A stretch of 64,000 nt of DNA from a virus (IMGVR_UViG_3300020049_008087:21183-85182), one strand, 5' to 3'; counted from the first letter of the stretch, positions 4,775 through 52,504 are shown. Numbers and translations: made by a program. The notes: generated from the letters alone by a model not told the origin.

Positions 4775-4854
4775 TATAAATACTTGTAGTTCGCGGGATT
4801 GGCGTCCCCAACTACTCTAATGCTTTGAAGGAGCAATCAGCATGTCTATTTATA
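4775..4854 (+). promoter_or_regulatory. Conserved structured endonuclease leader, copy A (late-type promoter, nested stems, RBS hairpin, inverted promoter motif)
   Basis: TATAAATA-CTT-GTAGTTCGCGGGATTGGCGTCCCCAACTAC-TCTAA-TGCTTTGAAGGAGCA-ATCAGC-ATG-TC-TATTTATA; aligns with copies at 9848 and 18455. Confidence 0.8.
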
Positions 4855-5660
4855 CAACAAATAATCACATTCCTTATACTTATCTTATAGGATGGACTAA
4901 ATTGAACATTTGGTATTACGGTAGGCGCACCAAAAAAGGGTGCCACCCTTCTGAATTTTGGATAACGTATTTTACTTCTTCTAATAAAGTCCATAATTTT
5001 AAGAAGGAACATGGCGAGCCAAATGTTGTTAAAATCAGGAAAACGTTTACTGGTACAGATAAAATTCATGATTGTGTGAACCATGAAGTTACCGTGCTAA
5101 GAAGAATTGATGCGGTGAAAAAAGACATGTGGTTAAATAAAGGAAATGCTGGCTCCCAATTTGATACGTCGGGTAAAGTAATCGCAAAAGAAATAGAAAG
5201 CGGAAAAATAGTAGTAATTAATCAGAATGATTTTGCACCTGGCTCCAGTCTTGTTGGTATTAACTCAGGAATTAAATTTAGAAAATGTAAGTGCCAATGG
5301 TGTGAAAAAGAGATTGCAATTAATAATATTTCAACTCACGAATTAAGCTGCGCATGTAACCCCGCAGGAGTTATGCATCAACGAACTGGAATTCCACTAC
5401 CGGAATCAATTAAAGAAAACATGAGACTCAACCATGCAGATGTGTCAGGTGCCTGTAATCCAAAAGCAAAACTATGGATATTAACATCACCTAGTGGTGA
5501 TAAAACATATATCAATGGTACGCTAAATCAAACGTTACGAGAGAAACAGTTAAGCAGAAATCATCTTATTGCCAACTTAGGACAAATTGTACAGTCTAAT
5601 TGTTCTATTAGATCAGAGTTGACCCGAAACACGTTAGGTTGGAAATTAGAATCACCGTAA
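4842..5660 (+). CDS. Free-standing GIY-YIG (Seg-like) homing endonuclease
   Basis: PYTY...WYYG...YFTSS N-terminal nuclease domain; C-terminal CxxC/His-Cys and helical DNA-binding modules; inverted relative to neighbours. Confidence 0.75.
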   Translation: MSIYTTNNHIPYTYLIGWTKLNIWYYGRRTKKGCHPSEFWITYFTSSNKVHNFKKEHGEPNVVKIRKTFTGTDKIHDCVNHEVTVLRRIDAVKKDMWLNKGNAGSQFDTSGKVIAKEIESGKIVVINQNDFAPGSSLVGINSGIKFRKCKCQWCEKEIAINNISTHELSCACNPAGVMHQRTGIPLPESIKENMRLNHADVSGACNPKAKLWILTSPSGDKTYINGTLNQTLREKQLSRNHLIANLGQIVQSNCSIRSELTRNTLGWKLESP

Positions 5661-5686
5661 TTCAGTTAAAATACAAAGGATTATGG

Positions 5687-7183
5687 TTACCGTTTTTTTC
5701 TTCCCACACCCACTGCAGCGGATTTTTCTAGGCGTTTGGGTTCTACTATGTCTGCTGCCGCGGCAGCAACAGCAGGTCCAACATCAACTGTATCCACTTC
5801 AGTTTCACCCGGTTCACTGCTAACACTGTCATCAGTCTTACCCAACTTGAAACTGAACCCGCCGCTGGTTGGATCACTTGCACTGGATTTGTTTTCTATT
5901 GATATCTCACCATCCAGTTTTGCTGGCCATTGAGTGCTAAAGGTCAGTTCGCCTGCTTTGTAGTCAGTGTACTGTTGGATAAAGTTCATTTCCAGTATCT
6001 GTAAAACTGTGGCACCGAACTCGGGTATAGCATCGTTATTGTTTATTGCATCAGCTACTGTTTTCTTGATAGCATAAATCAATTTACCACCATCAGTAGC
6101 AGTGCTCTTGGCTTTTATGTCAGCATACAATGGTTGAAATTGTTTCGGTAACGGCAACTGTTCTTTTAAACTCCTGATGCTCATCTGAACAATGTTGGGG
6201 AATTTGGAACTAAACGGTAGGAACTTTTGCCATACTTTGGGTAATGAGTTTGGATTAATCTGGTAAATAAAATCAATGGCCTTGAATGCTGATGTAATCG
6301 TAGTTGGACCAGACTTGTCAATTTCTTGACATAATTCAATGAACCTTACTGAGTCTTTAAATGCAGGGTTACGTTTCAGGTCGTTGGAAATCTTCAATCC
6401 TGACAGTGCAGGAGCAGCACCTCCTCCGGTTCCCTTACTGCTAATGTTGATAGTATGGTTAGTACCTGGATTGGTAATTACTGCAAAGCTGTCAGCCAAA
6501 TTGTTATTTGCTTTGCTGGGGAAGTTTAACATTAGATCATCTATGCTACCACCCAACCACTGTTCAAATTGTGCTCGCTTTGGAAATCGTGTTCTGTGGT
6601 ACAGTAAGGCCAACACACCCAAATACTCTCCGGCGTAGTCAACCACTGCTGCACGAATCTTGTCATTACTCTGTAATTCTTCAGGCAAAAATACTTGCTC
6701 TCCTGAAACAATATACTCGGCCAACTGAATGATTCCTTTACCGTACTCAGTGCCGGCTAATGTGGGGTTGTTGGCAATGGATGCATAGAAGTCACTGGCA
6801 GGAATATTTTTGTCTACTATGCCTATTTGGCTGGGTTTGACTACCAATGTTTCTTTACCAGCAGTGGATCCTTCTTCGCCAGCTGCCACCTGCTGTCCAC
6901 CAAACTCTTGTGTTTTTCTTAGGGTGCTCAGTGCAACTTCCTGGCCGTCTGTGGTTCTGGCCTTTAGTCCACCTTTAAACTCACCAGCATTGCGTAACTC
7001 AACAAAACGTTTGGCCTCTCTGGGATCAATTATAACTTCCTGTCCCTGAGCATCAGTAAACGGGCTTCTGCTTTGTATTTTTTTAATGAAGGTAGTAAAG
7101 CGTTCTTCGTATTTGGTAATCTCGCCGGCGCTGAGTCCAGTAGCTTCGTTTATTGTATTGAGTAGGTCTAAAATATCGCGCAT
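5687..7183 (-). CDS. Large hypothetical protein, possible PD-(D/E)xK-like nuclease domain
   Basis: LADSF...ISSK motif; TAAATA 6 nt before ATG. Confidence 0.45.
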   Translation of the reverse strand: MRDILDLLNTINEATGLSAGEITKYEERFTTFIKKIQSRSPFTDAQGQEVIIDPREAKRFVELRNAGEFKGGLKARTTDGQEVALSTLRKTQEFGGQQVAAGEEGSTAGKETLVVKPSQIGIVDKNIPASDFYASIANNPTLAGTEYGKGIIQLAEYIVSGEQVFLPEELQSNDKIRAAVVDYAGEYLGVLALLYHRTRFPKRAQFEQWLGGSIDDLMLNFPSKANNNLADSFAVITNPGTNHTINISSKGTGGGAAPALSGLKISNDLKRNPAFKDSVRFIELCQEIDKSGPTTITSAFKAIDFIYQINPNSLPKVWQKFLPFSSKFPNIVQMSIRSLKEQLPLPKQFQPLYADIKAKSTATDGGKLIYAIKKTVADAINNNDAIPEFGATVLQILEMNFIQQYTDYKAGELTFSTQWPAKLDGEISIENKSSASDPTSGGFSFKLGKTDDSVSSEPGETEVDTVDVGPAVAAAAADIVEPKRLEKSAAVGVGRKKR

Positions 7184-7203
7184 AATGAGTATTTATCTAA
7201 AAT

Positions 7204-7692
7204 TTAGCACTTGAACAAATCCTGATGCTTGAACCATTTCTTCATTGAATGTGAAGTACGCAATGATATGCCAATGTCTCTGAGTTTTAACTGTTTGTGA
7301 TAAAAGCTGGGACCATGACTCATTATCCTGTCTTTGCCCTTTTCTGCACGTTCCGCACTGAATATTTCCCACTGATATTGATGACACATCTCATGTGCCA
7401 GAGTGGTCACCATCCACTGAGTACAGTACCATTTGTCCATGAGTTTTATCTCACAATAGCTGCCTGAGGAGTATGGTATTGTTTCTCCATAGCACATGCC
7501 CCAGTATTTTCTGCATCTGCTGGACAGCTTTATATTGGGTTTGGTCAACTCATTGTCAAAAACTGCCTGATTTATCAGATCGTACACGTATTCCACTTCA
7601 GATTGGCTGGCTCTGTACGCCAATTTTCTCTGTAGAGAAATCTTGGGCAAAGGGATAGCCATAATCTCTTTTAGTGTCATTGTGTCAATCAT
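7204..7692 (-). CDS. SprT-like zinc metalloprotease domain protein
   Basis: TLAHEMCHQ (HExxH) plus HGPSF downstream. Confidence 0.8.
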   Translation of the reverse strand: MIDTMTLKEIMAIPLPKISLQRKLAYRASQSEVEYVYDLINQAVFDNELTKPNIKLSSRCRKYWGMCYGETIPYSSGSYCEIKLMDKWYCTQWMVTTLAHEMCHQYQWEIFSAERAEKGKDRIMSHGPSFYHKQLKLRDIGISLRTSHSMKKWFKHQDLFKC

Positions 7693-7763
7693 AAAGTATT
7701 TAATCCGGGGAAAAATTTGGGTAGAATTTTTAGTGCTAAATATACTATATCAAGGAGAAGGCA

Positions 7764-8177
7764 ATGTTTAATTTTTTAAAGAAACTATTTGGGGCAAAAC
7801 AATCACCACAGGATTGGCCATTTCCCACCAGCAAGACAGCACCAACCATGTCACCACAGGCACCATATAAAGTTGAACCAGCAGTCGAGGTTACTACCAA
7901 AATTGATGGTATCGGGCATGAATCTATTACGGCTGAACCTGAAGTAACCAGCAAACTTGATGTCAACAAAGACGGAAAAGTTAATCTGGAAGATGTTAAC
8001 GCTATCGTGCAACAAGTATCCAAAAAGATAGTGAAAACTGTCAAGGAAAAAGCTGATGTTAACAAGGACGGCAAAGTTAATGCTGCTGATGCCAAAGCAG
8101 TGGTCAAGAAAGTGGCTGACAAAGCCAAAACTATTTCCAAAAAGACTGCTCCTAAAAAAGCAGCTCCTAAGAAATAA
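7764..8177 (+). CDS. Protein with two DxNxDG Ca-binding (EF-hand/dockerin-like) loops and a Lys/Ala-rich tail
   Basis: DVNKDGKVNLED and DVNKDGKVNAAD; AAGGAG RBS; terminator downstream. Confidence 0.7.
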   Translation: MFNFLKKLFGAKQSPQDWPFPTSKTAPTMSPQAPYKVEPAVEVTTKIDGIGHESITAEPEVTSKLDVNKDGKVNLEDVNAIVQQVSKKIVKTVKEKADVNKDGKVNAADAKAVVKKVADKAKTISKKTAPKKAAPKK

Positions 8178-8192
8178 CACTGTGTTGAGTAC

Positions 8193-8218
8193 AAAAGGGG
8201 CTTAGGCCCCTTTTTTTT
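8193..8218. terminator. Intrinsic terminator (probably bidirectional)
   Basis: AAAAGGGGC-TTAG-GCCCCTTTTTTTT. Confidence 0.85.
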
Positions 8219-8236
8219 ACCGCACATAAATACTTA

Positions 8237-8932
8237 ATGAACTTAAGTTTTGATTTAATCAGTGACCTCAACCTAACGCCCGGTGACAAGTTTGTTTGGG
8301 AAGGCAAAGTAACCAGCTTATTTTGCGTGATTCCAGGTAATATAAGCAGCGACTTGGCCATAGTGAAAAAGACACTGACCTACTTGGCCGAACTCTATCA
8401 GGGTATCTTCTACATAGATGGTGCCGCTGAACACCTGAATATCTTCCAGCGCAGTGAAAGAATAACTCAGCTTGAGAAAATCTGCAAAAATATCAACAAC
8501 ACTGTATACTTGCATGACAATGTGATAATTGTCAATGGCGTAGCTATACTGGGCATTAATGGATGGTATGGAAATTACACTAAAGCAACAGGCGCGCTGG
8601 ATAGTATACGACTGGATGCGTTTCGTCAAGAAGATTTGGTCTATTTGCATGAAAGTATCAAACGCATGCAATTGCATCCTGAAGTAAAACACATACTGAT
8701 ATTGTCAGCCAGCGTTCCCAGTAAAGAACTATACTTTGGCGAACACACTGCCATAAATGACTCAATGAGTCCTACCGTGAGTTTACTTGGTGATACTGAA
8801 AAGAAAGTGACACATTGGGCGTTTGCTGGATCCAATAAAAAAGTTGATATCACTATTAATGATATCAACTATCTTGCTAATCCTCGTACTACCACTGAGC
8901 CCTACTGGGCCAAGTGTATACCAATCAATTAG
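8237..8932 (+). CDS. Degenerate calcineurin-like metallophosphoesterase-fold protein
   Basis: Motif spacing is preserved (ISDL, PGNI, DG..EH, W.F.G, NPR) but the metal ligands are substituted. Confidence 0.6.
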   Translation: MNLSFDLISDLNLTPGDKFVWEGKVTSLFCVIPGNISSDLAIVKKTLTYLAELYQGIFYIDGAAEHLNIFQRSERITQLEKICKNINNTVYLHDNVIIVNGVAILGINGWYGNYTKATGALDSIRLDAFRQEDLVYLHESIKRMQLHPEVKHILILSASVPSKELYFGEHTAINDSMSPTVSLLGDTEKKVTHWAFAGSNKKVDITINDINYLANPRTTTEPYWAKCIPIN

Positions 8933-9228
8933 GCTTCAGCTTCAATTTTTACCTGCAGTGGGAATCCCTGACTGCGAGCCTCAACTGTAACCTCAATTCC
9001 TTTTTGTTCTGCGATTTCGTAGGGTAGCACTGCTACCACGGCAGAACCATCTTCGTGAATACTCTGTGTGATGTTGCCCGCAGTATCTCCATTGTAATGG
9101 AAATGTTCAATTAAGCTGCCCACAACGAATTCCATACTGGTAAGATCGTCATTGATATAAATGACTTTGTACATGGGGGGTTCTTCAACTCGCAAGTTTG
9201 GTGTTATTGTAATTTTAGTATCTGACAT
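8929..9228 (-). CDS. clpS: Clp protease adaptor ClpS
   Basis: PPMYKVIYINDDLTSMEFVV...IHEDGSAVV...YEIAEQK...FPL. Confidence 0.92.
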   Translation of the reverse strand: MSDTKITITPNLRVEEPPMYKVIYINDDLTSMEFVVGSLIEHFHYNGDTAGNITQSIHEDGSAVVAVLPYEIAEQKGIEVTVEARSQGFPLQVKIEAEA

Positions 9229-9284
9229 TTGTTACCCTAAAAGTTATGAGGTGTGCAGCTTGATTGCCGACACCTGTTATTATA

Positions 9285-9731
9285 TTACTTAATATATGAA
9301 ATTGCAATAGATTTGGGTTTGTGATCTTCAGGGATCACTCTCTCCAAGTCTATCACCAGCATACCATCACGCATCACTGCACCCTTTACTTCAATATGTG
9401 GGCCCAATGGAAAGGTGCGTTCAAAGTTCCGAGTGCTGATGCCACGATGCAAATATTCCACATTCTCAGGCATCAGTTCTTTCTTAGCACCAGTGATAGT
9501 TAATAGATTCTTCTCAATGGTAACATCAATTTCCCCTTCTTTAAATCCGGCTACTGCCACTTCGATGCAAAAGTCGTTGTCGTCAACCTGCAGCAGGTTG
9601 TAAGGTGGATAGTTGGTTTGTTGAGCTTCTGTTGTACGTAATAGTTCATTAAGCATAGTATCAAAACCTACTCCGAATTTATGAATTGATGGAATATTTA
9701 ACGCACGTAAGGTTAGTGTTGGATTTGTCAT
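9285..9731 (-). CDS. ibpA: Small heat-shock protein (Hsp20/IbpA family)
   Basis: GFD...NYPPYNL...IEVAVAGF...YLHRGISTRNFERTF...GMLVIDLER. Confidence 0.92.
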   Translation of the reverse strand: MTNPTLTLRALNIPSIHKFGVGFDTMLNELLRTTEAQQTNYPPYNLLQVDDNDFCIEVAVAGFKEGEIDVTIEKNLLTITGAKKELMPENVEYLHRGISTRNFERTFPLGPHIEVKGAVMRDGMLVIDLERVIPEDHKPKSIAISYIK

Positions 9732-9847
9732 TTTAGTCTCCTTAAAAATAAGCGATTGACATTGATATAGACCCGACCGTTCGGCATCTATAACACTATT
9801 TATTATACTACGTTTGCGTAAAAAAGTAAATTATTTTGGGTTAAAAG

Positions 9848-9927
9848 ATAAATACAGTTGTAGTTCACGGGATTGCAGTCCCTAACTACTCTAATACTGT
9901 TAAGGAGTATCAGCAATGACTATTTAT
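9848..9927 (+). promoter_or_regulatory. Conserved structured endonuclease leader, copy B
   Basis: ATAAATA-CAGTT-GTAGTTCACGGGATTGCAGTCCCTAACTAC-TCTAA-TACTGTTAAGGAGTA-TCAGCA-ATG-AC-TATTTAT. Confidence 0.8.
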
Positions 9928-10587
9928 TCAAAAACTAATCTACCATCAGGTTTCTATGTTTATGCTTACCTACGAAAAGACGGAACCCCGTATTATATTG
10001 GCAAAGGCTCGGGTAATCGGGCTTGGAAAAAAAATCCTAAAGAATTTCTGCCGCCTAAGGATAACAACAGAATTATCATAATATACCCTGATCTTACTGA
10101 ATTATGGGCATTTTTAGTAGAACGACGACTAATTCGTTGGTACGGGCGTAAAGATAAAAACACTGGTATTTTACACAACAAGACAGACGGTGGAGAAGGT
10201 ACCTCTGGGAAAGTGGTCACTGAGAAGACCCTCAATATGTTTAGAGGAAATAATAATCCCGCAAAACGAACCGAGGTTCGTAAAAAAATCAAACAGAACC
10301 ATGCATTAAATGACCCGGCTCGGAGAGAAGTATTGTTAAATCGGGTTAGTGGAGCAAATCATTTTAGTCAACAAGAAGGGTATGAATCCAAAATAAAAGG
10401 AGTGGCCCATCCTAATTATGATCATACTATCTACACATTTATTAATAAACACACTGATGAGATCCTATATGCTACCCAACGAGAAATGTTAGTATATTTG
10501 GATAAAGAACATAGGTCCAGTAATATGAGCATGCTTATTAGCGGAAAAAGAAAGTCATTTTTCGGATGGAAGATATTTCGCAACTAA
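9916..10587 (+). CDS. Free-standing GIY-YIG homing endonuclease
   Basis: FYVYAYLR...PYYIGKG...RAW...E..LI..YGR...N.TDGGEG; inverted orientation; 3' end overlaps clpX. Confidence 0.85.
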
Positions 10588-11775
10588 TAGTATTGGATTA
10601 TCTACGTGTTCTTTTTTGATTAATAACTCTATGACATTGCATTCCTTATACGTCCGGACGTGAAACATCGCCGGCATCAGTACCCGTTCAATTTCTGTGT
10701 GCAACCCACGAGCGCCTGTTTTTAGCGTAAGAGTGTTTTCCGCAAGTTGTTCCAGTGCTTCATTGGTAAAAGTCAGTTCAATATTGTCCAGCTTGAACAA
10801 GTACTGGTATTGACTGATATAGTTGTTCTTGACATTTTTCAGAACATGTACCAACTGTTCTTTGGTCAACTCTGATATGCTAACTGAAGTGGTAAATCTG
10901 CCAACGAACTCGGGTATCATACCAAACTTGGTCAGATCATCTGGCGTGAGTTTGGACAGATCGCCCTCTAGTTTGGCATTCTTTATATTAGCACCAAAGC
11001 CAATACTGGTACCACTCATGCGATTGGCGATAACATCCTTTAGTCCCACAAACGCGCCACCAGCAATGAACAGGATGTCTTTGGTATTGACTTCACTCAT
11101 TTCACTGCCAGGATGCTTTCTACCGCCTGCGGTGGACACTCGGCAAACTGTACCCTCTACCAGCTTGAGCAGGGCCTGCTGTACACCTTCTCCACTCACA
11201 TCACGTGTTATACTGGCACTCTCACCTTTACGGGCGATCTTGTCAATTTCATCAATAAAGATGATACCACGTTCAGCTTTTTGCAGATCACCACCAGCTG
11301 CGTTCACCAGCATGTTAATCATGCTTTCAACATCATCGCCCACATAACCAGCTTCAGTGAGACTGGTGGCATCGGTAACTATAAATGGCACATCCAGATA
11401 CTTGGCCACTGTTTTAGCTAACAGTGTCTTGCCTGATCCAGTAGGACCCACTATGAGTACGTTACCCTTTTGGATATCAATATCTTTAGAGGGATGAGTG
11501 ATTCGTTTATAGTGGTTGTATATTGCTACACTGAGTACAACTTTGGCATCCTCTTGTCCGATAACATGCTCATCCAAATGTGCTTTGATAGTTTCGGGAT
11601 CATGCTCGCTGGGTGGTATGCTAACAGGTTCAACTGTCTCATCTACTATTAACTCTTGGCATAGTTCTACGCAGGTACTACATATAGCAACATTGTCACC
11701 AACTATAAGTTTTTCAACTTGTTCTTTGTTGGTCCCGCAAAAACTACAGTGATTTAATCTTGTATCTTCAGTCAT
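10555..11775 (-). CDS. clpX: ATP-dependent Clp protease ATP-binding subunit ClpX
   Basis: CSFCG..C..C Zn finger, [43 protein letters not shown] loop, GARGL. Confidence 0.97.
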
Positions 11776-11811
11776 ATATAATACTTATCTCAGTGATGGG
11801 TGCCTATTAAA

Positions 11812-12792
11812 TTAGTAGATACAGGCACTAACTGCCTTGACCTTGATGTTGGCTACCTTGGGCATTAGGCTCTGCATCCTATCGTCCATATCCAACCCAA
11901 ATGCCAGTTGCTCAGCCCAACGATTGTTCACCATTAGTCGTCCAGGGTTTTTGTCGTATACACTGGGTGTAACTGGTAGCAAACAACGGTACTCCAACAC
12001 TTTGCCTGTGATATCCGATAACTCAACTTGAAATGTCACTGATTCCCTAAACGTATTCACCACTTGCATTGGTCTTACACTGTCGTTGAAATAGTAAGTT
12101 TTAGCAGTACCCAGTATTTCGTAACCCTTGACTACATTGACTGTGATACCAAAGTTCTTGTCGCACATGGCCTTACAGTCAAAGTCTCGCACCTCATTGA
12201 GCGCACCCATTAATCCCACTAGATAATCAGGATTGAACTCATACCAGAATGGTATGTATAAAATCATTCTGCGGTTACGGTCTGCTTGAATCTCAGTTTT
12301 GCCCTGGTCAATCTTAAAAGCTTTTGTAGGGTAATCCTGCAGCACTTTGTTCAAGTATGCGTCGCCAGTGGCTCGTTCTTTTTTATAAGTAGAAACTGTG
12401 GCACTGGCTCGCTCACCGTCAAGTTTCCCTGAAGCCTCTGACACGTGCAGCACATAGTCATTAATCATGCTGGGTTTTACATACACGATAGCTTCAACTG
12501 TGTACTTGCCATTGGCTTGCGTAGTACTGGAGATAACAAAATTGTCAACATAGCCTGAGCTATGGCTGGCGATTTCTTTGGTCACCAGTTTACTGTCAAC
12601 CGTCACTCGCTTGCTGATAATGGCAGAGCCAATGCTCTGCTCTACTGCTTGTCTAAATGCCGATTCTTTTGCCTGCTCAAACGTGTTGCCATGTCCTGTT
12701 ACGTTATAGGGACCACTCGCTGTGATGCCATTGGTAGTAGCACAACCCACCATTACCAATGACAACCAAACCACCAAGATAGCGGCGCGCAT
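11812..12792 (-). CDS. Putative lipoprotein (LPP20-like N-terminal domain)
   Basis: Signal peptide with lipobox VMVG-C; G.G.T.EQAK..A...AVEQ motif. Confidence 0.65.
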   Translation of the reverse strand: MRAAILVVWLSLVMVGCATTNGITASGPYNVTGHGNTFEQAKESAFRQAVEQSIGSAIISKRVTVDSKLVTKEIASHSSGYVDNFVISSTTQANGKYTVEAIVYVKPSMINDYVLHVSEASGKLDGERASATVSTYKKERATGDAYLNKVLQDYPTKAFKIDQGKTEIQADRNRRMILYIPFWYEFNPDYLVGLMGALNEVRDFDCKAMCDKNFGITVNVVKGYEILGTAKTYYFNDSVRPMQVVNTFRESVTFQVELSDITGKVLEYRCLLPVTPSVYDKNPGRLMVNNRWAEQLAFGLDMDDRMQSLMPKVANIKVKAVSACIY

Positions 12793-13457
12793 TATCGGAA
12801 GTTCTTGCGCAGAGTTTCAACAGCCTTCTGACTGTCACGATCCCAGCGAATCACCACCTTCACCATACGACCACCTGACATGATGTCAGTATCTTTAATA
12901 AAGACACCACTCAGAATACTATTACTCTCCTCGCTGATTTTCTTGATTACTGTGCGAGTGGTTTGGTTGATATTGTCACGAATAGCAATGTTGTTCTCTC
13001 CAGCGTCTTTGTCTTTGGCCACTGGTGCTGCGGGCGCTGCTGCCTCAACGTCACTCATTACAACTACGTCATCTTCACCACCCTTGATTTTGTTTCGGGT
13101 TTTGTCATGCGCCTTCTCCACGTTCTTGCTCATGGTGTTGGTCACACGCGAGCTAGTGATGCCTTCACGCAGAAACCTGACCAACTTTGCTTTGGCATCA
13201 AGTTCTGCTGCATCAAACGCATTGTCATGCTCAAACTCGGTGTTGCCTGCAGCAGGCGCGTAGCCAGTGACTTCCACTGATTTCAGTTCACCAGTCATAG
13301 TCCAGTCGATTTTGATACCTTCTTTTCTAAAATTGGTACTAAGTCGTTGTTCTTGAATCGCTGTCACAGGTGCAGGAGTCACTGTGTTGGGACCACTAAG
13401 TGTACCGCATGCAGTCAGTGATACTGAAACCGCTAAAACTAAGTATTTTAATTTCAT
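12792..13457 (-). CDS. Putative lipoprotein (LPP20-like)
   Basis: Lipobox LTA-C; AAELDAKAKLVRF motif; TAATG-coupled to the downstream lipoprotein. Confidence 0.65.
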   Translation of the reverse strand: MKLKYLVLAVSVSLTACGTLSGPNTVTPAPVTAIQEQRLSTNFRKEGIKIDWTMTGELKSVEVTGYAPAAGNTEFEHDNAFDAAELDAKAKLVRFLREGITSSRVTNTMSKNVEKAHDKTRNKIKGGEDDVVVMSDVEAAAPAAPVAKDKDAGENNIAIRDNINQTTRTVIKKISEESNSILSGVFIKDTDIMSGGRMVKVVIRWDRDSQKAVETLRKNFR

Positions 13458-13569
13458 GATGTTCCCTATTAATTAGTGTAGAGTGATATAATACAACAAA
13501 ATGGATTTACTGTCAACCAGAATCAACATCTTTTCTTAGAAAGTTTGCTTTTTCTCTGTAAATACTGCA

Positions 13570-14139
13570 TCATTTCAGTTTATATTTGGTTTGTTTTCTT
13601 CCCGGAGTTGCATAATCACGATTGATATTACTCTTAACAGCATGACAACATTTGCATAATGTTTGTAAGTTTTCTGTACGTGAATCAAATGGATCTCCAT
13701 TGATATGGTCAACATCTAGCATCCCTTCCCATATAATAGTAGTAGTGCATTTAAATTCTAAACGACCGTCAATGTTCTCGCAGTATGATTTTCTAAACGC
13801 TAAATGTCCGGTTAGAGCACTAGAATGTTCTTTGCAGTATATAGTGTACTTTATCTTACCTGAATGATTGGTGCCAGATATCTCTACTTTTTTCTTGCAA
13901 GTAGTAACCTTACAGCAATGCAAAGTACGCCGGTCAACTAACGCAGATTTTACTTGAAAGTTGGCTCGTCGATCAGTATGACAGGGCGTACAATATTTAC
14001 GAAATTTGGGGTAGCCGTTAACGTAATATATTCCCATATGCTGCGTTTTATTGTTGCACCCTGCAGTGGTACATATGGGTCGATCTTTTAAGGGGACGGT
14101 AACTTTATCTTTATTTTTTGCACTAAGTCGGTGTGTCAT
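13570..14139 (-). CDS. HNH endonuclease with Cys-rich Zn-binding repeats
   Basis: LDVDHINGD...ENLQTLCKCCH; several CxxxxC and CxxC motifs; own TTGACA promoter. Confidence 0.8.
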   Translation of the reverse strand: MTHRLSAKNKDKVTVPLKDRPICTTAGCNNKTQHMGIYYVNGYPKFRKYCTPCHTDRRANFQVKSALVDRRTLHCCKVTTCKKKVEISGTNHSGKIKYTIYCKEHSSALTGHLAFRKSYCENIDGRLEFKCTTTIIWEGMLDVDHINGDPFDSRTENLQTLCKCCHAVKSNINRDYATPGRKQTKYKLK

Positions 14140-14200
14140 GACAGTATCCCAAAGTTAAGTTAAGAACTACATGATATCAAAGATTGGATTTATTGTCAAG

Positions 14201-14236
14201 TAAAATAGCAACTATCGTGAAATAGTTGCTATTTTA
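14201..14236. repeat. Perfect 15-bp inverted repeat (terminator-like hairpin)
   Basis: TAAAATAGCAACTAT-cgtgaa-ATAGTTGCTATTTTA, just after the stop of 14238..15995. Confidence 0.8.
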
Positions 14237-14237
14237 G

Positions 14238-15995
14238 CTAGATATGCTTGGGATTGGTGATGTATGAGGTAACAGTGTCAGTTTCACTGTCTGTTAGAAT
14301 TTCAGGGTCTATTTCCCCTGTACCAATTTTATCAACCAAGTATTGCACATACTGGTTGTTAGTCAGATAACTTTCTGAATGTTCTCTGTTCACTTCAATC
14401 CATTTGCCACCATTGAATTTGAACACGCGGTTGGGCAGTGCATCTACTCTGACAAAGATATCTCCCATGATTGCGTATTCAGGAAAGCTTGTACCAAAGC
14501 CAGTTTGTTTGTCTGCCTTGCCATCTTCCTGTAGGCCAAACAAATCTGGACGAGTTTGCTTGAGTACCTTTTCGTGCATACGCTTGCCCTCAAATTCAAC
14601 ATACTCTGAATCTTTGAGTCTGCGATATGATTCTTTGGTAACGCCTGCAATTTCAATCTCGGTATTTTCTACCACTGCTGCTATCTCATCATTGACCAAT
14701 ACTTCAATGGTTGGTGCCACTACATTGGCCAAGGGGTCATCTTCTAGTGTGCCTTCAGGACGTTCCAAAGGGAAGGGAAATGCATCTGACGTATCAGCCG
14801 AAGCCTCCGCCATTGGCATGATGCTGTCAACAGTGAGTACCTCTGAGTCACTGCTAACTGGTTCAGCCACTGGTTCGGTTGAAACAGCCACTGGCGGCAC
14901 TTCATCTAGTTCTATAATTTCTTCTACTGGATCCAACAATGCAATAGCAGCATTGGCCTCTAGTATGTCTGCCTGCTCATCATGTATTTGCTCTAACTCT
15001 GACTGAGTTCTCAGTGCATCAACAAATTGGTCATTATCAGTCACCTGTTGTTCAGGTGGTGTAACATTATCAGCTACATCACACTCTTTGTTTGGACAGA
15101 ATGGACCAATGCCAGGCGCATCCAACAGTGCAGTATTACATTTATAACAATGGCCAATATCCAACACAGTGTCTGGCAGTTGTTCAGGTTCCATAGCACC
15201 CACTGGGGTAGTTATTGGAGCACTGATTTTTTCTTTATCTTCTCTACCCCATTCAAATTGTTTATTGGCTGCAAGAATCAAACACAATGCCAGTGGATCA
15301 AACACAACCACAATCAATATGATTACCCAACGCACTGCTTTTTCTAAAACGTTTTGATCTGGATTATCGCCGTATATAAATGCAGCTATATACTTGATTG
15401 GACCAACTTCAGCCTCAACTTTTCTAAACTCTGCTGCCAGTGGAGCACGTTCTTCCTGTAACAGTACGATACTCTTTTGTGCTTTATTGATCTCAGCCTG
15501 CAAGCTGGCTCGTTCTTTGGCTTGATTCTTACGAATTTGCACTGCACGTTCTGCACCACGATCGGTGTCAGTACGACCCATCATGCCATCAACCTGAGCA
15601 TTCATTTGCTCAATTGCTTTTTTTGCACTGGCTATGTTGTCTTTTTCTGTGGCGATCTTTTCATCATAGATGGCTACCTTACTGATAGCATCACCGCTGA
15701 TCAAGCCCTGGTCACTGTTGGCTTTGCTTAAGAATCCAAAGATACCCATGCTGGTCAATATCATGAGGAACAAGATAGCAGGAACCAAGTATACTTTGAA
15801 CAGGAAACTGATACGCTTCCAGTTATTGTGTAACCAAACAGTGGCAACTACCTTGCCCAATTCTAAGCTGGCGCCCATGATGATAACAGGAATCACCGCC
15901 GCAGAAAAGATGGCAGTGAGTCCGGCTACTGAGTAGTAGGCTGCTACCATACTGAGTAGCAGAGCGGTGGATAGAATGGCTAAGGCGAATATCAT
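14238..15995 (-). CDS. Membrane protein with coiled coil and long acidic C-terminal region
   Basis: Three N-terminal TM segments, coiled coil, TM segment (IIVVVFDPLA), acidic low-complexity tail. Confidence 0.75.
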   Translation of the reverse strand: MIFALAILSTALLLSMVAAYYSVAGLTAIFSAAVIPVIIMGASLELGKVVATVWLHNNWKRISFLFKVYLVPAILFLMILTSMGIFGFLSKANSDQGLISGDAISKVAIYDEKIATEKDNIASAKKAIEQMNAQVDGMMGRTDTDRGAERAVQIRKNQAKERASLQAEINKAQKSIVLLQEERAPLAAEFRKVEAEVGPIKYIAAFIYGDNPDQNVLEKAVRWVIILIVVVFDPLALCLILAANKQFEWGREDKEKISAPITTPVGAMEPEQLPDTVLDIGHCYKCNTALLDAPGIGPFCPNKECDVADNVTPPEQQVTDNDQFVDALRTQSELEQIHDEQADILEANAAIALLDPVEEIIELDEVPPVAVSTEPVAEPVSSDSEVLTVDSIMPMAEASADTSDAFPFPLERPEGTLEDDPLANVVAPTIEVLVNDEIAAVVENTEIEIAGVTKESYRRLKDSEYVEFEGKRMHEKVLKQTRPDLFGLQEDGKADKQTGFGTSFPEYAIMGDIFVRVDALPNRVFKFNGGKWIEVNREHSESYLTNNQYVQYLVDKIGTGEIDPEILTDSETDTVTSYITNPKHI

Positions 15996-15998
15996 AAG

Positions 15999-16214
15999 CT
16001 AGTATTTATCACGTGGCTGACCGACATCAAACAGATGTCCATAAGTTGATACAAACTCATTGGCTTCCATTTGCAATTTTTTAGGTATAGAATTGGCGTG
16101 TGAAGTGGCATAGTGTACCCATTGCACACCCTCATCACGAGTCTTTACCTCTAATACAGTAATACTGATGCCATCTTCAAACAGGTATGATTTACCTTCA
16201 AGTAGTTGTTTCAT
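15999..16214 (-). CDS. Hypothetical protein
   Basis: ORF track; fills gap. Confidence 0.6.
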   Translation of the reverse strand: MKQLLEGKSYLFEDGISITVLEVKTRDEGVQWVHYATSHANSIPKKLQMEANEFVSTYGHLFDVGQPRDKY

Positions 16215-16814
16215 TTATTCAACATGGTGAACACTGTACTCACCCCATTTAACATCATATTCGCCTGCATTGTTGTCAATCGCTTGACCTGCATACTCAA
16301 TGCTGCTGACAATTTCACCGTGATCGGTTTCAGACACATGGAATTTTAGTTTGGTAAAGTCAATATCTTCTTCGGAGTCAAATGATCCCTCAAAGTAACA
16401 GCCCTTGCCACCCTGCACCCATTTGAGATAAAAGCCAGGATCCAGTACACTAATGTAGTAGTCCCGATCTCCATGGTCACTCATGCCCAGTTCATATTCT
16501 GGATCATATTCACTGATCATGTCGCCAATACTGCCGTGGTACACGATATTGCCTTCTGCATCCTTAATGACCACTAGACCATCGTCTAGGTCTGGCCCGC
16601 CCGCAAACACCACGTCATTGTATTCATTGTAATAGTCAAGCAGCTTACATTCTTCTGGAGTTCCATTCTCATCATAGTCAAATGATGACTGCAGCGCATC
16701 AGACAAATATTCCTCGAACTCATCACTGCTCCAGTAATCATATTGTGCTTGAGTGATTGTGCCAATGCCCACGTCCATGCCGCGGCTGAAAATTTCAATT
16801 GTGTATTCTTTCAC
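16215..16814 (-). CDS. Acidic hypothetical protein
   Basis: GTG start overlaps the upstream TGA; GGAGG RBS. Confidence 0.7.
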   Translation of the reverse strand: MKEYTIEIFSRGMDVGIGTITQAQYDYWSSDEFEEYLSDALQSSFDYDENGTPEECKLLDYYNEYNDVVFAGGPDLDDGLVVIKDAEGNIVYHGSIGDMISEYDPEYELGMSDHGDRDYYISVLDPGFYLKWVQGGKGCYFEGSFDSEEDIDFTKLKFHVSETDHGEIVSSIEYAGQAIDNNAGEYDVKWGEYSVHHVE

Positions 16815-17059
16815 TGTGCTGCCTCCTGTAGTGTTATTTGTGTTTTGAATCCCATGCGAGTGCAATATTCCACATAGTCATCTTTGTGTACATACCTATC
16901 CATGCCCTGTTGCCCGGTGGGTACTTGCAAGTAGTTCACTAGATTGAATCCACTGCCACTGCCCACTCTACGATGTACGCTGATGCGGCGCAGGTCGGTT
17001 AGGTGATCACGCTCTCGTACTAAAAAATATTCTGTTGGTTCATTAAGTTGATTGATCAT
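16811..17059 (-). CDS. Hypothetical protein
   Basis: ATGA overlap with the ligase stop. Confidence 0.55.
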   Translation of the reverse strand: MINQLNEPTEYFLVRERDHLTDLRRISVHRRVGSGSGFNLVNYLQVPTGQQGMDRYVHKDDYVEYCTRMGFKTQITLQEAAQ

Positions 17060-18390
17060 TTGTCATCTCTAAATCTGATAAAGCGAGGGAAACGCAAACT
17101 GTATGTGCCATCCTGATTCTGTGTTATGGCATCGCACATGACTTCTGCGGTACGACCAATTATCACATTGCTGTTGGTCCAGTATTCAGTGCGGTCCTCA
17201 TCACTGAAGCCACTGCCCACATTGACTGTGATGTGTTTACCATCATCCGTACCCTCACATAACAATGCACCCAGGCGACCCAGATTGCGTCCAGTGCCTT
17301 CGTCTACGCCAATGATGGAGAGGTCAACTGTGATAGTGGGTTTCCATTTCAACCAGTCAGTACTGCGTTTGCACACATAGGGTGCATCAATATCTTTGAT
17401 CATGATGCCTTCAAAGCCTGCATTTACATTGTCTTTGGCATAACGCTCAAGTTGATCTTTGCCCTCAGCAAAATCCAAATCAACCATCAAGTGAGGCAGC
17501 AGTTCTACGTTGGGCATACTATCAATGACAGGACGCATCTTTTCTAGGATATCAATGCGCTTGTGCAGTTGAGCATTCCAATAACCACGATTGAAATCAA
17601 CGATTGGAATAACGTCAAAGATATTGAACACGCTGTCATCGGCCTGTGTATCTGACTTACGCCGAGCTTGCCGCATGAGTTCTTGGAAACTGTTGCCAAT
17701 TACCTCACCATCTAGCACGAACCCAGCCACCAGATGCTGGCGTCCGGCGGCAATTAACTTAGTTAATTTGGATTTGATTTGTTCTTCAATGTGAGTGAAG
17801 TTCTCAAACACTTTGCCATTGCGGCTGTAACACTGCACAAATGGATAATCAGAATCAAAATCGGAACACAGTACCAGTACTCTGACACCATCCAGCTTGG
17901 GCTCCAATCGTTTCTGTCCCTTCATCTCTGGTCTGCCTTCGCAATTGGTTGCCAGTTGGCAGGCAAAGATGGGCACTTCGTAATCTGTTTTCTTACATAC
18001 TTTGTTAATTGTTTTGTCACTAATACCCGCACGAAGGTCACGTGCCAGCACAGGCTTTAAGAATAGATTCCATTCTTCACTGTCAAACCGTTCACTCATG
18101 GCAGCAATAGCATCACGGGCAGCATGACCAGTCAGGCAGCGGGTGGACAGTTGTACCATTAGATCGTTGAATTCATCCCAGGGATTCTCTGCACCAGTGA
18201 TACCCACTGTTTCCGGAATCTGTTTTACACCAAAAACCACGTAGGGGTTGTAACATGCTTTAGTGAATGATAAAAAATTGATAGCATTAATACTACCTAG
18301 GACACTTGCTTCAAGGGCTTGAAGCATCACATCTTCTTTATGTGAACGACTATTACTTTCATTTAATTTTTTTATCCACGCAGCCGACAT
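17056..18390 (-). CDS. lig: ATP-dependent DNA ligase
   Basis: EPKLDGVR (KxDG), LDGE, FNIFD, EGIMIK, WLKWK, VGSGFSD, SLRFPRF. Confidence 0.95.
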   Translation of the reverse strand: MSAAWIKKLNESNSRSHKEDVMLQALEASVLGSINAINFLSFTKACYNPYVVFGVKQIPETVGITGAENPWDEFNDLMVQLSTRCLTGHAARDAIAAMSERFDSEEWNLFLKPVLARDLRAGISDKTINKVCKKTDYEVPIFACQLATNCEGRPEMKGQKRLEPKLDGVRVLVLCSDFDSDYPFVQCYSRNGKVFENFTHIEEQIKSKLTKLIAAGRQHLVAGFVLDGEVIGNSFQELMRQARRKSDTQADDSVFNIFDVIPIVDFNRGYWNAQLHKRIDILEKMRPVIDSMPNVELLPHLMVDLDFAEGKDQLERYAKDNVNAGFEGIMIKDIDAPYVCKRSTDWLKWKPTITVDLSIIGVDEGTGRNLGRLGALLCEGTDDGKHITVNVGSGFSDEDRTEYWTNSNVIIGRTAEVMCDAITQNQDGTYSLRFPRFIRFRDDK

Positions 18391-18454
18391 ATAAATTCCT
18401 TTATTTGAATGATTATATTATAGTTGAATTTAGATTATTTGTCAACCTTTTGGC

Positions 18455-18535
18455 ATAAATAATGGTGTAGTTCGCGGCAGTGGAATGCCCAACTACTCTA
18501 AATGCTTTAAAGGAGCAATCAGCATGAATATTTAT
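18455..18535 (+). promoter_or_regulatory. Conserved structured endonuclease leader, copy C
   Basis: ATAAATA-ATGGT-GTAGTTCGCGGCAGTGGAATGCCCAACTAC-TCTAAA-TGCTTTAAAGGAGCA-ATCAGC-ATG-AA-TATTTAT. Confidence 0.8.
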
Positions 18536-19108
18536 TACCTAATGGTAAAGACCCATAATATAACTGGGTTAAAGTACCTTTGTCAGACAAGAAAAAAAGA
18601 TCCTTACCGTTATCTAGGGTCGGGTATTGAATGGGCTACTCATTTGAGGAAGTTTGGAAAGACAGTTACAACGGAAGTTATTTTCCAAACAACGGACAAA
18701 CAGCAACTAAATGATTTAGGTAGATACTATAGTCAATTATGGCGGGTAGTAGATGCTATGGATGATTTTGGAAATAAAATTTGGGCAAACTTAATTCCCG
18801 AAACAGGTGGTGGACCAGGAGTAGCAAACCCCACACCGGAAATTAATTATAAGCGTTCGCTAAAACTATTAGGAAGAACGTTTCCTCATATGAAAGAATC
18901 ACCATCTGACGAAACCTGCTTAAAGATGAGTTTGGCACAAAAAGGAATTCCCAAAGGACCAATGAGTGAGGAACAAAAATTAGTTCGCAAAATAAAACAA
19001 ACCGGAGTACTTAAAGGTCCTCAAGTACTAATAACTTGTCATTGTGGAAAGACCGGCGGAACATCAAACATGAAACGATATCATTTTAATAATTGTAAAA
19101 TAAGGTAA
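18524..19108 (+). CDS. Free-standing GIY-YIG (Seg-like) homing endonuclease
   Basis: IYYLMVKTHNITGLKYLCQT...YLGSG...WANL.PE.G.G; NUMOD3-like SDETCLKMS and C-terminal CxCG...H..NC; true start follows the AGGAG RBS. Confidence 0.8.
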   Translation: MNIYYLMVKTHNITGLKYLCQTRKKDPYRYLGSGIEWATHLRKFGKTVTTEVIFQTTDKQQLNDLGRYYSQLWRVVDAMDDFGNKIWANLIPETGGGPGVANPTPEINYKRSLKLLGRTFPHMKESPSDETCLKMSLAQKGIPKGPMSEEQKLVRKIKQTGVLKGPQVLITCHCGKTGGTSNMKRYHFNNCKIR

Positions 19109-19187
19109 TCATCCCTACTCTCCTCAATTATTTTTTATAGTGTGCTATAATAGCACACCATTGATAGTGTGTACAGAAATTTGGGCG

Positions 19188-27190: not shown

Positions 27191-27490
27191 TTATAGCCAA
27201 GTGAGTGCAAATAGTGTGTATGCTTCTGGTGTCATATATATTCTCTTAAGACCGTCCACTGAGTGCCAGGCCCATTTGGCAGTGCAGTATTCATCAAGTT
27301 GTAGTGCAAATTCTCTTTCCATTCCAGGTCCCAGTGAATCATGGAACCACTGCCTAAATTTAATATAAGACTTGATCTTTGCATTGAACGAAGGGAATCC
27401 ACGCGGTGACTGTACCACATAATGGCTAAACATACCAATGCCGGTATGCCTGTTGTCCATCTTGGTAACTTTTAATTCTTTGCCGGTCAT
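27191..27490 (-). CDS. Family B member
   Basis: WFHDSLG; ends YTLFALTWL. Confidence 0.7.
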   Translation of the reverse strand: MTGKELKVTKMDNRHTGIGMFSHYVVQSPRGFPSFNAKIKSYIKFRQWFHDSLGPGMEREFALQLDEYCTAKWAWHSVDGLKRIYMTPEAYTLFALTWL

Positions 27491-27491
27491 G

Positions 27492-27731
27492 TCAACTCCA
27501 CCTCAATGCAGTTACCATGATATCGTTGGGAGCATTTTTCCAAATTCTTACGCCGTGGTCGATTGTAGATTCTGTATAATCTTTACCGGAACAGGTTTCT
27601 TCGTGGGATTGGGTACACCAAAACCAAGTAACTTCTTCTTCAGGTTTACCAAATTTTTCAATCATCCAATCACATATTTGCTTGAATTCTTTATAGTATG
27701 TACGCTCATTAATAGAAATCCTTACGCTCAT
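27492..27731 (-). CDS. Family B member
   Basis: WMIEKFG; ends TALRWS. Confidence 0.7.
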   Translation of the reverse strand: MSVRISINERTYYKEFKQICDWMIEKFGKPEEEVTWFWCTQSHEETCSGKDYTESTIDHGVRIWKNAPNDIMVTALRWS

Positions 27732-27925
27732 TATGACCACCTCAATATAAACCAACTTTTCTTTTTGTCATCATCAAATATAAACTCTGAAATAGCGGCA
27801 TTGAATACTGCACCGTGTTCCTTTTTTAACCAAGTCTCAATGCCCATGCATTTGGTTTCAATTTCCCAATGTATATTATCATAGTAGTAATCACAAATTT
27901 TATGCCAGGTGTCAGAATGATTCAT
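27731..27925 (-). CDS. Family B member
   Basis: WLKKEHG; ends FIFDDDKKKSWFILRWS. Confidence 0.75.
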   Translation of the reverse strand: MNHSDTWHKICDYYYDNIHWEIETKCMGIETWLKKEHGAVFNAAISEFIFDDDKKKSWFILRWS

Positions 27926-33664: not shown

Positions 33665-34503
33665 GTGCCCCAGTGGTTTTTGAACAGTGGCACCTGAAGT
33701 CTATCACTGTAACGCCAGCCTTTTTGCATTGCCAATTCTGCCACCTTACGATTGTTCAAACAGTATACGCTTTCTACTCCACCAACAGGCATCAAGTACA
33801 CATATCCCTTGAATCCTGCCGCACGATATTCTGCTACTGCCAGTTCTGCTTCTTCAACGTCTGCTTGATTGGCCACTACGAATTTAAGATAGGTGTTACC
33901 AAACCATTCGTACATGTCAACTATCCCTGGTACGATAGCATCAGACCAGGCCTCACCCGACACTGACAGCTTGGGAGAAACTGAAAATGTAAGATTGTTT
34001 TTTCTAGTTGATGTCCAATTTCTGTACAAGTATTTTCTAAAGTCCTCAGATAATTCTTGAGTGCCATTTGTTTCAAATGTAAGTTCAGCCAGATTCTTCA
34101 TCTTATCATGGTTCAACAAGTCAGGATAACTGCGCTGCCAACCCAACAAAGGCTCACCACCTGTGATAACTAGATGTTCATCACGCCATTCTTTATGTGG
34201 CAACATGTCTATAATACGCTCTGCAATAGCATCTGATTCAACCACAGGACTCAAATCTTTGAATCGTGGATCCCAGCTGGCATAACTATCACAGCCAGTT
34301 GATACCAGTGGTAACGAATTGTATGACGTATAGTTCTCTGGAGTGATGTACACTGCCTCTGTGCTCTTTTCACCTTTGGGCATACCAAAACCACTACAAG
34401 TAAAGTTACAACCAAATGTGCGAAGGAACACACTGGGAACTCCCATGTATCTGCCCTCACCCTGAATACTATAGAACAGTTCTGCTACTTTAATTTTACT
34501 CAT
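33661..34503 (-). CDS. queE: 7-carboxy-7-deazaguanine synthase (radical SAM)
   Basis: ELFYSIQGEG...VFLRTFGCNFTC...GCDS, ITGGEP, FETNGT, SVSPKL, KFVV, YLMP. Confidence 0.92.
   Translation of the reverse strand: MSKIKVAELFYSIQGEGRYMGVPSVFLRTFGCNFTCSGFGMPKGEKSTEAVYITPENYTSYNSLPLVSTGCDSYASWDPRFKDLSPVVESDAIAERIIDMLPHKEWRDEHLVITGGEPLLGWQRSYPDLLNHDKMKNLAELTFETNGTQELSEDFRKYLYRNWTSTRKNNLTFSVSPKLSVSGEAWSDAIVPGIVDMYEWFGNTYLKFVVANQADVEEAELAVAEYRAAGFKGYVYLMPVGGVESVYCLNNRKVAELAMQKGWRYSDRLQVPLFKNHWGT
34461..34503 (-). repeat. 43-bp direct repeat, copy 1 (first 14 codons of queE)
   Basis: ATGAGTAAAATTAAAGTAGCAGAACTGTTCTATAGTATTCAGG, identical to 35341..35383. Confidence 0.95.
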
Positions 34504-35383: not shown

Positions 35384-35930
35384 CTCCGCACCAACTTTCC
35401 CAAGGAAATACAATCCAACCTGGATCGTTTACTTCATTAACTTCTGTACCTGAATATCTGACATTGATTTCGCTCTTGCTTGATTCTTTGTTGTACAGTG
35501 TTGCCACTCTCACATTGCTGTCCCATACCACATTCCATGCATGGTGTTGAGGGAAACAACTGGATTGCCAATCCATTTTGATCCAATTGAGTGTGGCACC
35601 TGTGTCATTGATATCGTCAACAATCAGGATATTTTTCTTGCAGCTGGGATCAACAGTGGTTCCAGAATCACCTCGTTGATCAAATGGTATATACCCAATT
35701 GCATTTTCTGCCATCCAACAATTGCTCTCGCACTCAGAGTCATCTCGCAAACTCACTTTCAATGTTTGCATTTTACAGTTAAACCAGTTGCTTAGCAACA
35801 CGGCTGGTACAAGTCCACCTCGTGTAATACCCACTATGTAATCGGGTACCCATTGATCTCGGCTGATCTGCTTGGCTATGTTTAAACAAAGCATTTCAAC
35901 CTCTCCATAATTAACGTATGTTTTCTTCAT
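35376..35930 (-). CDS. Type I phosphoribosyltransferase (xanthine/guanine PRTase-like)
   Basis: IVGITRGGLVPA, ILIVDDINDTGAT (PRPP-binding loop), WIVFPWE. Confidence 0.88.
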   Translation of the reverse strand: MKKTYVNYGEVEMLCLNIAKQISRDQWVPDYIVGITRGGLVPAVLLSNWFNCKMQTLKVSLRDDSECESNCWMAENAIGYIPFDQRGDSGTTVDPSCKKNILIVDDINDTGATLNWIKMDWQSSCFPQHHAWNVVWDSNVRVATLYNKESSKSEINVRYSGTEVNEVNDPGWIVFPWESWCGDE

Positions 35931-52494: not shown

Positions 52495-52504
52495 AGTATA
52501 GTAT

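Follow-up and report, generated by a model that had tools for sequence, protein, structure and literature searches.

This study examined a window of 64,000 nucleotides (IMGVR_UViG_3300020049_008087:21183-85182; one strand, with every position below counted from its first letter) from an uncultured T4-type jumbo phage, in which three free-standing homing-endonuclease genes are each headed by a copy of the same structured element. The element appears to be a portable control cassette of about 85 bp, placed at the 5' edge of such genes in one clade of T4-type jumbo phages, all of them uncultured. We observed that its structure is real and that the fold under selection is found on the strand antisense to the nuclease. 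From the sequence, we lean with modest confidence towards the reading that two convergent T4-type late promoters give rise to the nuclease mRNA and to a two-hairpin antisense RNA of about 70 nt, which covers the Shine-Dalgarno (SD) sequence of that mRNA and restrains the nuclease. The T4-type, family-B DNA polymerase of the phage is 49% identical to that of Sinorhizobium phage Phosso and 42-46% identical to those of Atu_ph07, XaC1 and CBB.

The three copies lie at 4775-4854 (copy A), 9847-9928 (copy B) and 18454-18536 (copy C), which confirms an earlier first-pass annotation in its claim that one element heads three plus-strand nuclease genes. They show a mean column identity of 79% from the promoter motif through the first codons, and the core GTAGTTCRCGG-N10-CCYAACTAC has three matches in the window and none in 100 shuffles. 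No further match to this core was detected in the whole 85,182-bp IMG/VR record holding the window, the completeness of which is about 24% (CheckV). In copy A, the forward late-promoter motif TATAAATA (4775..4782, plus strand) precedes the G of GTAGTT (4786) by 3 nt, where a distance of 5 is usual. Helix P1 follows (4786..4815, selected fold on the minus strand), consisting of the outer stem GTAGTT/AACTAC, one R:Y pair between two single-base bulges and an inner hairpin. In helix P2 (4817..4840, minus strand), minus-strand CUGAU.GCU pairs with AGCAUUAG and the anti-SD CUCCUU lies in and beside the loop, while the sense-strand SD AAGGAG is at 4828-4833 (plus). The reverse late-promoter motif, again TATAAATA (4847..4854, minus strand), falls in nuclease codons 2-5, 5 nt from a predicted antisense +1, the G opposite C4841. 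Copy B displays the forward motif GATAAATA (9847..9854, plus), N5 and a predicted +1 at G9860, then P1 (9860-9889) and P2 (9891-9913) folding on the minus strand over 9860..9913, with the sense-strand SD at 9902-9907, and the reverse motif AATAAATA in codons 2-5 (9921..9928, minus), 6 nt from GCTG. Copy C harbors CATAAATA (18454..18461, plus), N5 and a predicted +1 at G18467, P1 (18467-18496) and P2 (18498-18522) on the minus strand over 18467..18522, the sense-strand SD at 18510-18515, and the reverse motif AATAAATA in codons 2-5 (18529..18536, minus), from which N5 leads to a predicted antisense +1 opposite C18523. The units had also been described as back-to-back with the promoters of clpP, hsp20 and ligase, and sigma70-like promoters are indeed located there, at 4765-4737, 9830-9802 and 18445-18417 (minus strand).

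An exact-pattern scan of IMG/VR disclosed at least 120 loci, with 127 occurrences in 123 loci among the matches listed, and all of the 127 listed share one layout: (N)ATAAATA, about 5 nt, the bulged hairpin P1, UCUA, the hairpin P2 with AGGAG, CAGC, an ATG 0-2 nt further on, and TATTTA(T). From alignment A3, holding 110 unique copies, the covariance model R1 was built, which recovered 116 copies from the loci, at least 10 of them overlooked by the exact pattern; both model and alignment were made in the antisense orientation. Read in this orientation, the 116-copy alignment has standard pairs in 98.7% of its 2201 pair cells and compensatory change in 15 of 19 pairs, none of 500 shuffles reaches any of five covariation measures, and a control with slid 3' partners lets pairing fall to 22-43%. 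The cassette structure is real, and all of its helices covary. The covariation proposed earlier for the inner hairpin and the second hairpin holds over the 116 copies, whereas the outer stem, thought to be invariant, is so inside the window only; elsewhere, in the copies that the pattern overlooked, it covaries (GTGGTT/AACCAC, GTGAGT/ACTCAC, GCCGAT/ATCGGC, GTAGTC/GACTAC and GAGAGC/GCCCTC). On the antisense strand, P1 forms a stem interrupted by two bulged G's that are invariant, P2 carries a loop of 7 nt, and an AG spacer separates them; the two bulged G's suggest a protein partner.

With reference to the strand that folds, the wobble pairs are strongly asymmetric. There are 213 G.U cells, spread over 10 pair columns on the antisense strand, which are A.C mismatches on the sense strand, while wobbles open to the sense strand alone amount to 13 cells in one column, the P1 loop-closing pair; paired cells make up 98.7% in antisense versus 89.6% in sense. 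Pair 26:53 of A3 is G.U in 110 of 110 copies (the same pair, 21:74 in A4, is G.U in 114 of 116), pair 27:52 is AU in 87, UA in 13 and GU in 8, pair 29:51 is UG in 49, UA in 39 and CG in 10, and pair 63:82 is GC in 93, GU in 12 and AU in 5. Minimum free energies, for which no alignment was used, are better on the antisense strand in 96 of 110 copies (-16.1 vs -13.1 kcal/mol). This raw comparison overstates the difference, as G and U are more frequent on the antisense strand, and hence a shuffle correction was applied; the composition-corrected mean z is -1.70 for the antisense strand and -1.11 for the sense strand, and lower on the former in 83 of 110 copies (p = 4.5e-10). Wobble asymmetry and corrected energies together indicate that selection acts on an RNA of the strand opposite the nuclease gene, and the selected fold is thus antisense to the nuclease.

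The cassette is bordered by two facing TAAATA cores about 75 bp apart. The T4 late promoter, TATAAATA, occupies -13 to -6, and the cassette core matches this T4 late consensus. In 101 of 117 copies, N5 lies between forward TAAATA and the first G of GTAG. The TATTTA(T) after the ATG is the reverse complement of the promoter core, so that the minus-strand reading (A)TAAATA-N5-GCUG, its core within codons 2-4, mirrors forward TAAATA-N5-GUAG. The distance from CAGC to this TATTTA is 5 nt in 86 of 110 copies and 4-6 nt in 106 of 110, whereas the ATG follows CAGC by 0, 1 or 2 nt, and TATTTA is consequently read in three frames, giving M-x-I-Y (MTIY), M-I-F-I (MIFI) or M-Y-L (MYL). As this spacing stays at 4-6 nt while the ATG register shifts, conservation is at the nucleotide level. 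If T4 geometry is valid here, both conserved blocks start exactly at the predicted +1, and P1 and P2 are wholly downstream of the forward one, in agreement with the first-pass annotation, which had placed the whole structure beyond the promoter motif. Further minus-strand genes of the window, a tail-fibre-like gene among them, also have ATAAATA ahead of them (63965, 52508, 23019), which would fit a role of this motif as the late promoter of this phage. The positions flanking the two cores and the spacers show no covariation (0.74, 0.50 and 0.39, against 0.72, 0.56 and 0.40 when shuffled), which speaks against a long-range helix between promoter and anti-promoter. As a separate observation, ATAAATA at 7190-7196, 16003-16009 and 52502-52508 (minus strand) is only 6-7 nt upstream of the start codons at 7183, 15995 and 52494; with T4-like +1 spacing, these genes would yield leaderless or near-leaderless late mRNAs.

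In the proposed mechanism, the forward late promoter would start the nuclease mRNA at the G of GUAGUU, and the reverse one an antisense RNA at the G of GCUG. The latter would run through P2, with the anti-SD CUCCUU in and beside its loop, the AG spacer, P1 and then the U-rich tract ACUUUUAUUUAU, the complement of the forward promoter, which may terminate it at about 70 nt. The complementarity of such an RNA to the mRNA leader would be complete, beginning at +1 and stopping 0-2 nt ahead of the AUG. The predicted overlap includes the SD AGGAG, opposite the P2 loop and 5' arm, and leaves the AUG 0-2 nt outside. Pairing of the two would hide the SD and block ribosome loading, the duplex might be a substrate of RNase III, and the two promoters, firing against each other, may also cause transcriptional interference, so that the combined effects would hold nuclease output low. 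Promoter activity of the two motifs, the 3' end of the antisense RNA and the repression of translation are points that we infer from the sequence. Several points weigh against this reading. Composition alone accounts for about 1.25 of the 3.0 kcal/mol between the strands, the antisense-oriented model and alignment could tilt the pair counts slightly towards that strand, and the sense strand is still paired in 89.6% of cells. Moreover, the U-rich tail is dictated by the complement of the forward promoter and is not independent evidence of termination, P1 is not called as a terminator in a simple scan, the two promoters are of one temporal class, which obscures the regulatory logic, and the antisense RNA would end 0-2 nt before the AUG.

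Building on the proposed antisense control, we tentatively consider a bolder role, which we regard as unlikely: the cassette would be a self-contained, exchangeable 'governor' of selfish nucleases, in which an RNA-binding protein of phage or host recognises the antisense RNA by the invariant bulged-G motif of P1, rapid evolution of the inner stems and of P2 makes the antisense specific to each nuclease gene, and the RNAs silence incoming nuclease genes with matching cassettes in trans at co-infection. If true, competition or immunity among homing endonucleases, and among phages, would gain a further layer in RNA.

Among the alternatives, the antisense-strand structure may serve the neighbouring core genes, as a terminator or insulator for backward transcripts, or as the 5' leader of a late transcript into clpP, hsp20 and ligase, in the manner of promoter-early stem-loop (PeSL) cassettes or the embedded promoters of T4 seg/mob. 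The three neighbours in the window are all minus-strand genes that immediately follow the reverse promoter; T4 endonuclease genes embed promoters for downstream genes (PMC2988022); the insertion at copy C cut ligase off from its native promoter and provides a new one; and a sigma70-like promoter occurs within 45 nt after P1 in 26 of 116 copies, against 3.25 in shuffles. Even so, such a role appears improbable. The cassette is retained with a divergent upstream neighbour (66 cases) as well as a co-directional one (35 cases), and since it is kept in both orientations its role would belong to the nuclease gene and not to the neighbour; in the co-directional 35 of 101, where about 14 nt separate the end of the upstream gene from the core, the transcript would only be antisense to a 3' end. 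The offset (15-42 nt) and the sequence of the sigma70 promoter vary, placing it outside the cassette, hsp20 retains native promoters common to the nuclease-less relative, and P2 with its anti-SD loop would be left without function. On the same variable offset of 15-42 nt and unrelated sequences, the sigma70-like promoter was rejected as a cassette part, and with its occurrence after P1 in only 26 of 116 copies, an assignment to the PeSL cassettes of T4-type phages, in which a conserved sigma70 early promoter forms one unit with the stem-loop just ahead of it, was rejected as well.

The first-pass annotation had taken the element for a portable cis-regulatory RNA. As a leader on the sense strand, a 5'-terminal stabilising hairpin and a hairpin that partly hides the SD would throttle translation in cis in the nuclease mRNA. 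The structure is indeed entirely inside the predicted late transcript, the sense strand also forms both hairpins with 89.6% of its cells paired, and hairpins at the ribosome-binding site (RBS) are an established control of T-even homing-endonuclease genes (PMC2988022). Nevertheless, we judge this explanation quite unlikely, as the wobbles favour the other strand by 213 to 13 and, with the composition-corrected energies, place the structure there. An A.C mismatch is near-invariant in sense P2 (114 of 116 copies) and a second one is seen in 49 of 116. The second hairpin covaries as had been described, but its supposed burial of the SD stands only in part: sense P2 is short, enclosing the 3' part of the SD and leaving most of it in the loop. 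The frame-independent TATTTA after the ATG would also go unexplained.

A timing mask of the T4 style is a further and very doubtful alternative, according to which AUAAAUA in early or middle read-through transcripts pairs with UAUUUAU after the AUG, forming a three-way junction that hides the start, while late transcripts without the 5' arm are translated. The two motifs are exact complements, ViennaRNA gives the closing helix for extended copies A and B, the logic is known from I-TevI, segB and Aeh1 mobE (PMC2988022), and read-through is likely in the co-directional contexts with their short distance to the upstream gene. Against this, only 6-7 A-U pairs would close a multiloop of about 65 nt, neither the flanks nor the two N5 spacers covary, copy C does not form the closing helix, and the strand asymmetry of P1 and P2 is left unexplained. 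The T-even form of the mask, with the late promoter inside the hairpin, was rejected, given that P1 and P2 lie wholly downstream of the predicted +1 and that the sole upstream partner is the A-U helix of 6-7 bp.

In its genomic setting, the cassette proved to be mobile. At least 105 distinct open reading frames (ORFs) stand downstream of it, from two unrelated nuclease superfamilies: about 75 are GIY-YIG/NUMOD3, about 25 HNH (Pfam HNH, HNH_3, HNH_5), and a few belong to others. The relative IMGVR_UViG_3300042892_002410, whose ligase, ClpP and Hsp20 are 98%, 96% and 99% identical to the window proteins, lacks all three nuclease-plus-cassette units, which signifies that the cassette travels with the gene. 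Identical P2 variants are found on different nuclease families, 5 of 13 cases spanning GIY-YIG and HNH, so that cassette and ORF have been exchanged independently. The idea of a portable module on diverse nucleases, already proposed from the three window copies, is upheld by these ORFs, variants and empty sites. Copies within a genome are neither more alike, as in gene conversion, nor more different, as in avoidance of cross-talk, than copies between genomes (P2, P = 0.97; P1, P = 0.26; 18 within-genome pairs only). In the clade, the cassette is present at 1 of 80 ligase loci and 1 of 80 clpP loci, and within the 1.0 Mb context of those loci, 2 of 4 nuclease-like ORFs have it. A DNA-level element, that is, a recombination or cassette-exchange site or a cruciform that shuffles nuclease ORFs and has no RNA function, is highly improbable: although the shared P2 variants show recombination inside or beside the cassette, and the cassette is at the edge of the inserted segment, recombination homology predicts neither the compensatory pairing in every helix nor the strand-specific wobbles, and promoter cores stand at exact +1 spacing on both sides.

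The empty sites differ in their junctions. The segment missing from the nuclease-less relative L130 (18391..19109) comprises gene C, its cassette and 64 bp with a ligase promoter and RBS; this 64-bp stretch carries a 12/12 sigma70-like promoter (18445-18417, minus) and the RBS serving ligase, and the first 20 or so ligase codons have diverged. The native ligase promoter, RBS and ATG persist at about 19110-19175 (minus), upstream of nuclease gene C, where they head a remnant ORF of 8 codons (MITLFYNY*). At copy A, the native clpP promoter has been replaced and the first 20 or so clpP codons have diverged, while at copy B the forward ATAAATA follows the junction by about 10 nt and about the last 25 clpX codons have diverged. 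Intronless homing, in which a target within a conserved gene is co-converted, would be expected to leave this pattern.

Some cassettes were found apart from an intact nuclease. The copy at L038:130-209 has neither the reverse TAAATA nor a nuclease gene and stands ahead of a terminase large-subunit gene (L038:227-1900); it may be what remained when the nuclease gene was lost. At L050, L082 (minus copy) and L005, the cassettes are intact and the nuclease frames behind them are broken by early stops, and in these loci the cassette outlives the gene during decay. In prokaryote assemblies, copies occur only on five contigs (L290-L294) binned into metagenome-assembled genomes, mostly of Bacteroidota (two of Haliscomenobacter, one each of Mucilaginibacter, an uncultured Bacteroidetes bacterium and a Terrimicrobiaceae bacterium), a weak hint that freshwater Bacteroidota are the hosts.

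The three nuclease genes of the window are on the plus strand, each opening with the ATG of its cassette copy, gene A at 4842-5660 (272 amino acids), gene B at 9916-10587 (223 amino acids, overlapping the clpX 3' end by 33 nt) and gene C at 18524-19108 (194 amino acids). Their proteins have no significant pairwise similarity (BLASTP expectation value, E, at least 0.56), as the first-pass annotation had remarked, and Pfam returned nothing in any of them. The GIY-YIG label given to all three is well supported for B and C and weakly for A. Gene B shows FYVYAY ... PYYIGKG with the invariant R, E and N; its family alignment A8 keeps Y14 Y16 Y18, Y26 Y27 G29, R35, E69 and N88 invariant, and the family profile matches the GIY-YIG structure 9u75 (E = 0.0075), so that on its sequence it is assigned to the GIY-YIG superfamily. 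For gene C, the structural model of residues 1-90 (pLDDT, the predicted local distance difference test, 94-98) has the I-TevI catalytic domain as its top three PDB matches (probability 0.99, target template-modelling (TM) score 0.62, Foldseek E only 0.05), and the modelled fold is that of a GIY-YIG catalytic domain. The N-terminal domain model of gene A (pLDDT 80-90) displays the order strand-strand-helix-strand-helix and has I-TevI and UvrC GIY-YIG domains among its top matches (target TM 0.45-0.50, but E of at least 1); with a weak PHROGs match to 'homing endonuclease', the model weakly resembles GIY-YIG. Its MSIYTTNNH is an N-terminal extension missing from cassette-less homologues, two of which begin at the first beta-strand (MIPYTYLIGW, MPQPYVYL) and have neither the M-x-I-Y tag nor TATTTA. 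Profile comparison revealed no catalytic domain common to the three families; the sole aligned region is a C-terminal Cys/His motif (C-x-H/x-C ... R-x-H ... C; probability 94%), with examples at 5286-5330 and 19036-19099. A fourth homing-endonuclease-like gene (34496-35413, minus) has three NUMOD3 motifs (E = 1e-20), no cassette and the orientation of its neighbours, signifying that cassette use is not universal among the mobile nuclease genes of this phage. The plus-strand ORFs 8237-8932 (231 amino acids) and 27438-27884 (148 amino acids), amid minus-strand genes, have no Pfam or PHROGs match and no cassette.

Regarding novelty, the Rfam search gave nothing at the gathering score across the whole window and, in the copy A region, chance-level snoRNA matches only (E of at least 1); the first-pass annotation, which recognised no named family, is consistent with this. 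With blastn, the element found no counterpart among 50,697 phage records, an 8-kb part of the window had no megablast match to a cultured relative, the covariance model found no credible copy in the cultured relatives Phosso, Atu_ph07, Vibrio phage 2.275.O, XaC1 and CBB, and the literature searched held no description of the cassette. The restraint of free-standing homing endonucleases in T4 is known case by case, through gene-specific hairpins, autorepression and dependence on read-through. If our reading is true, the cassette would be the first family-wide control element for such genes, one exchangeable RNA cassette for both GIY-YIG and HNH, as well as a new abundant class of structured RNA with unusually clear covariation and a natural case of convergent late promoters acting as an antisense pair in T4-type phages. 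It also offers a sequence tag for mobile nuclease genes of metagenomes that are overlooked by protein profiles, Pfam being silent on the three genes here.

In comparison with known systems, the cassette belongs to none of the T-even, CfrI, FinP or IS10 RNA-OUT families, and the likeness to them would be one of mechanism only. The genes I-TevI, I-TevII, I-TevIII, segB and mobE of T-even phages and Aeh1 likewise have a late promoter directly upstream of the nuclease gene and an RNA structure around the RBS, apparently limiting expression (PMC2988022). There, however, the promoter is inside the inhibitory hairpin and late transcripts escape (PMC2988022), whereas both cassette hairpins are downstream of the predicted +1; the cassette fold is selected on the other strand, with a second, opposing promoter, and the T-even elements are gene-specific while the cassette is common and portable. 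For T4-like phages, a single antisense RNA that covers a homing-endonuclease gene has been described, CfrI of cyanophage S-PM2; it overlaps the gene as predicted here, but is unrelated in form, has a length of about 225 nt and connects the nuclease gene with psbA, and its description mentions no portable cassette with convergent late promoters (PMC2984593). FinP/traJ of F-like plasmids offers a likeness in form, with two stem-loops, a short spacer and a 3' tail complementary to an RBS-bearing leader, and hairpins on both RNAs that permit loop-loop contact (PMC3105414); FinP, on the other hand, requires the FinO protein and controls a transcription activator (PMC3105414), and the comparison is an analogy only. 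The RNA-OUT of IS10 is an antisense RNA of 69 nt; it is made from a promoter within the transposase gene, at its 5' end, and is complementary to the region where translation begins (PMC5006887). It differs in that the cassette enzyme is a homing endonuclease, that both cassette promoters are phage late-type motifs, and that the cassette RNA would have two hairpins and overlap the whole leader (51-64 nt, vs 35 nt for RNA-OUT), and the two have no sequence or structure in common. Nevertheless, the RNA-OUT/RNA-IN pair of IS10/Tn10 shares with the prediction made here its main feature, a mobile element that curbs its own mobility enzyme by a stem-loop antisense RNA of about 70 nt from a convergent promoter in the 5' end of the gene (PMC5006887).

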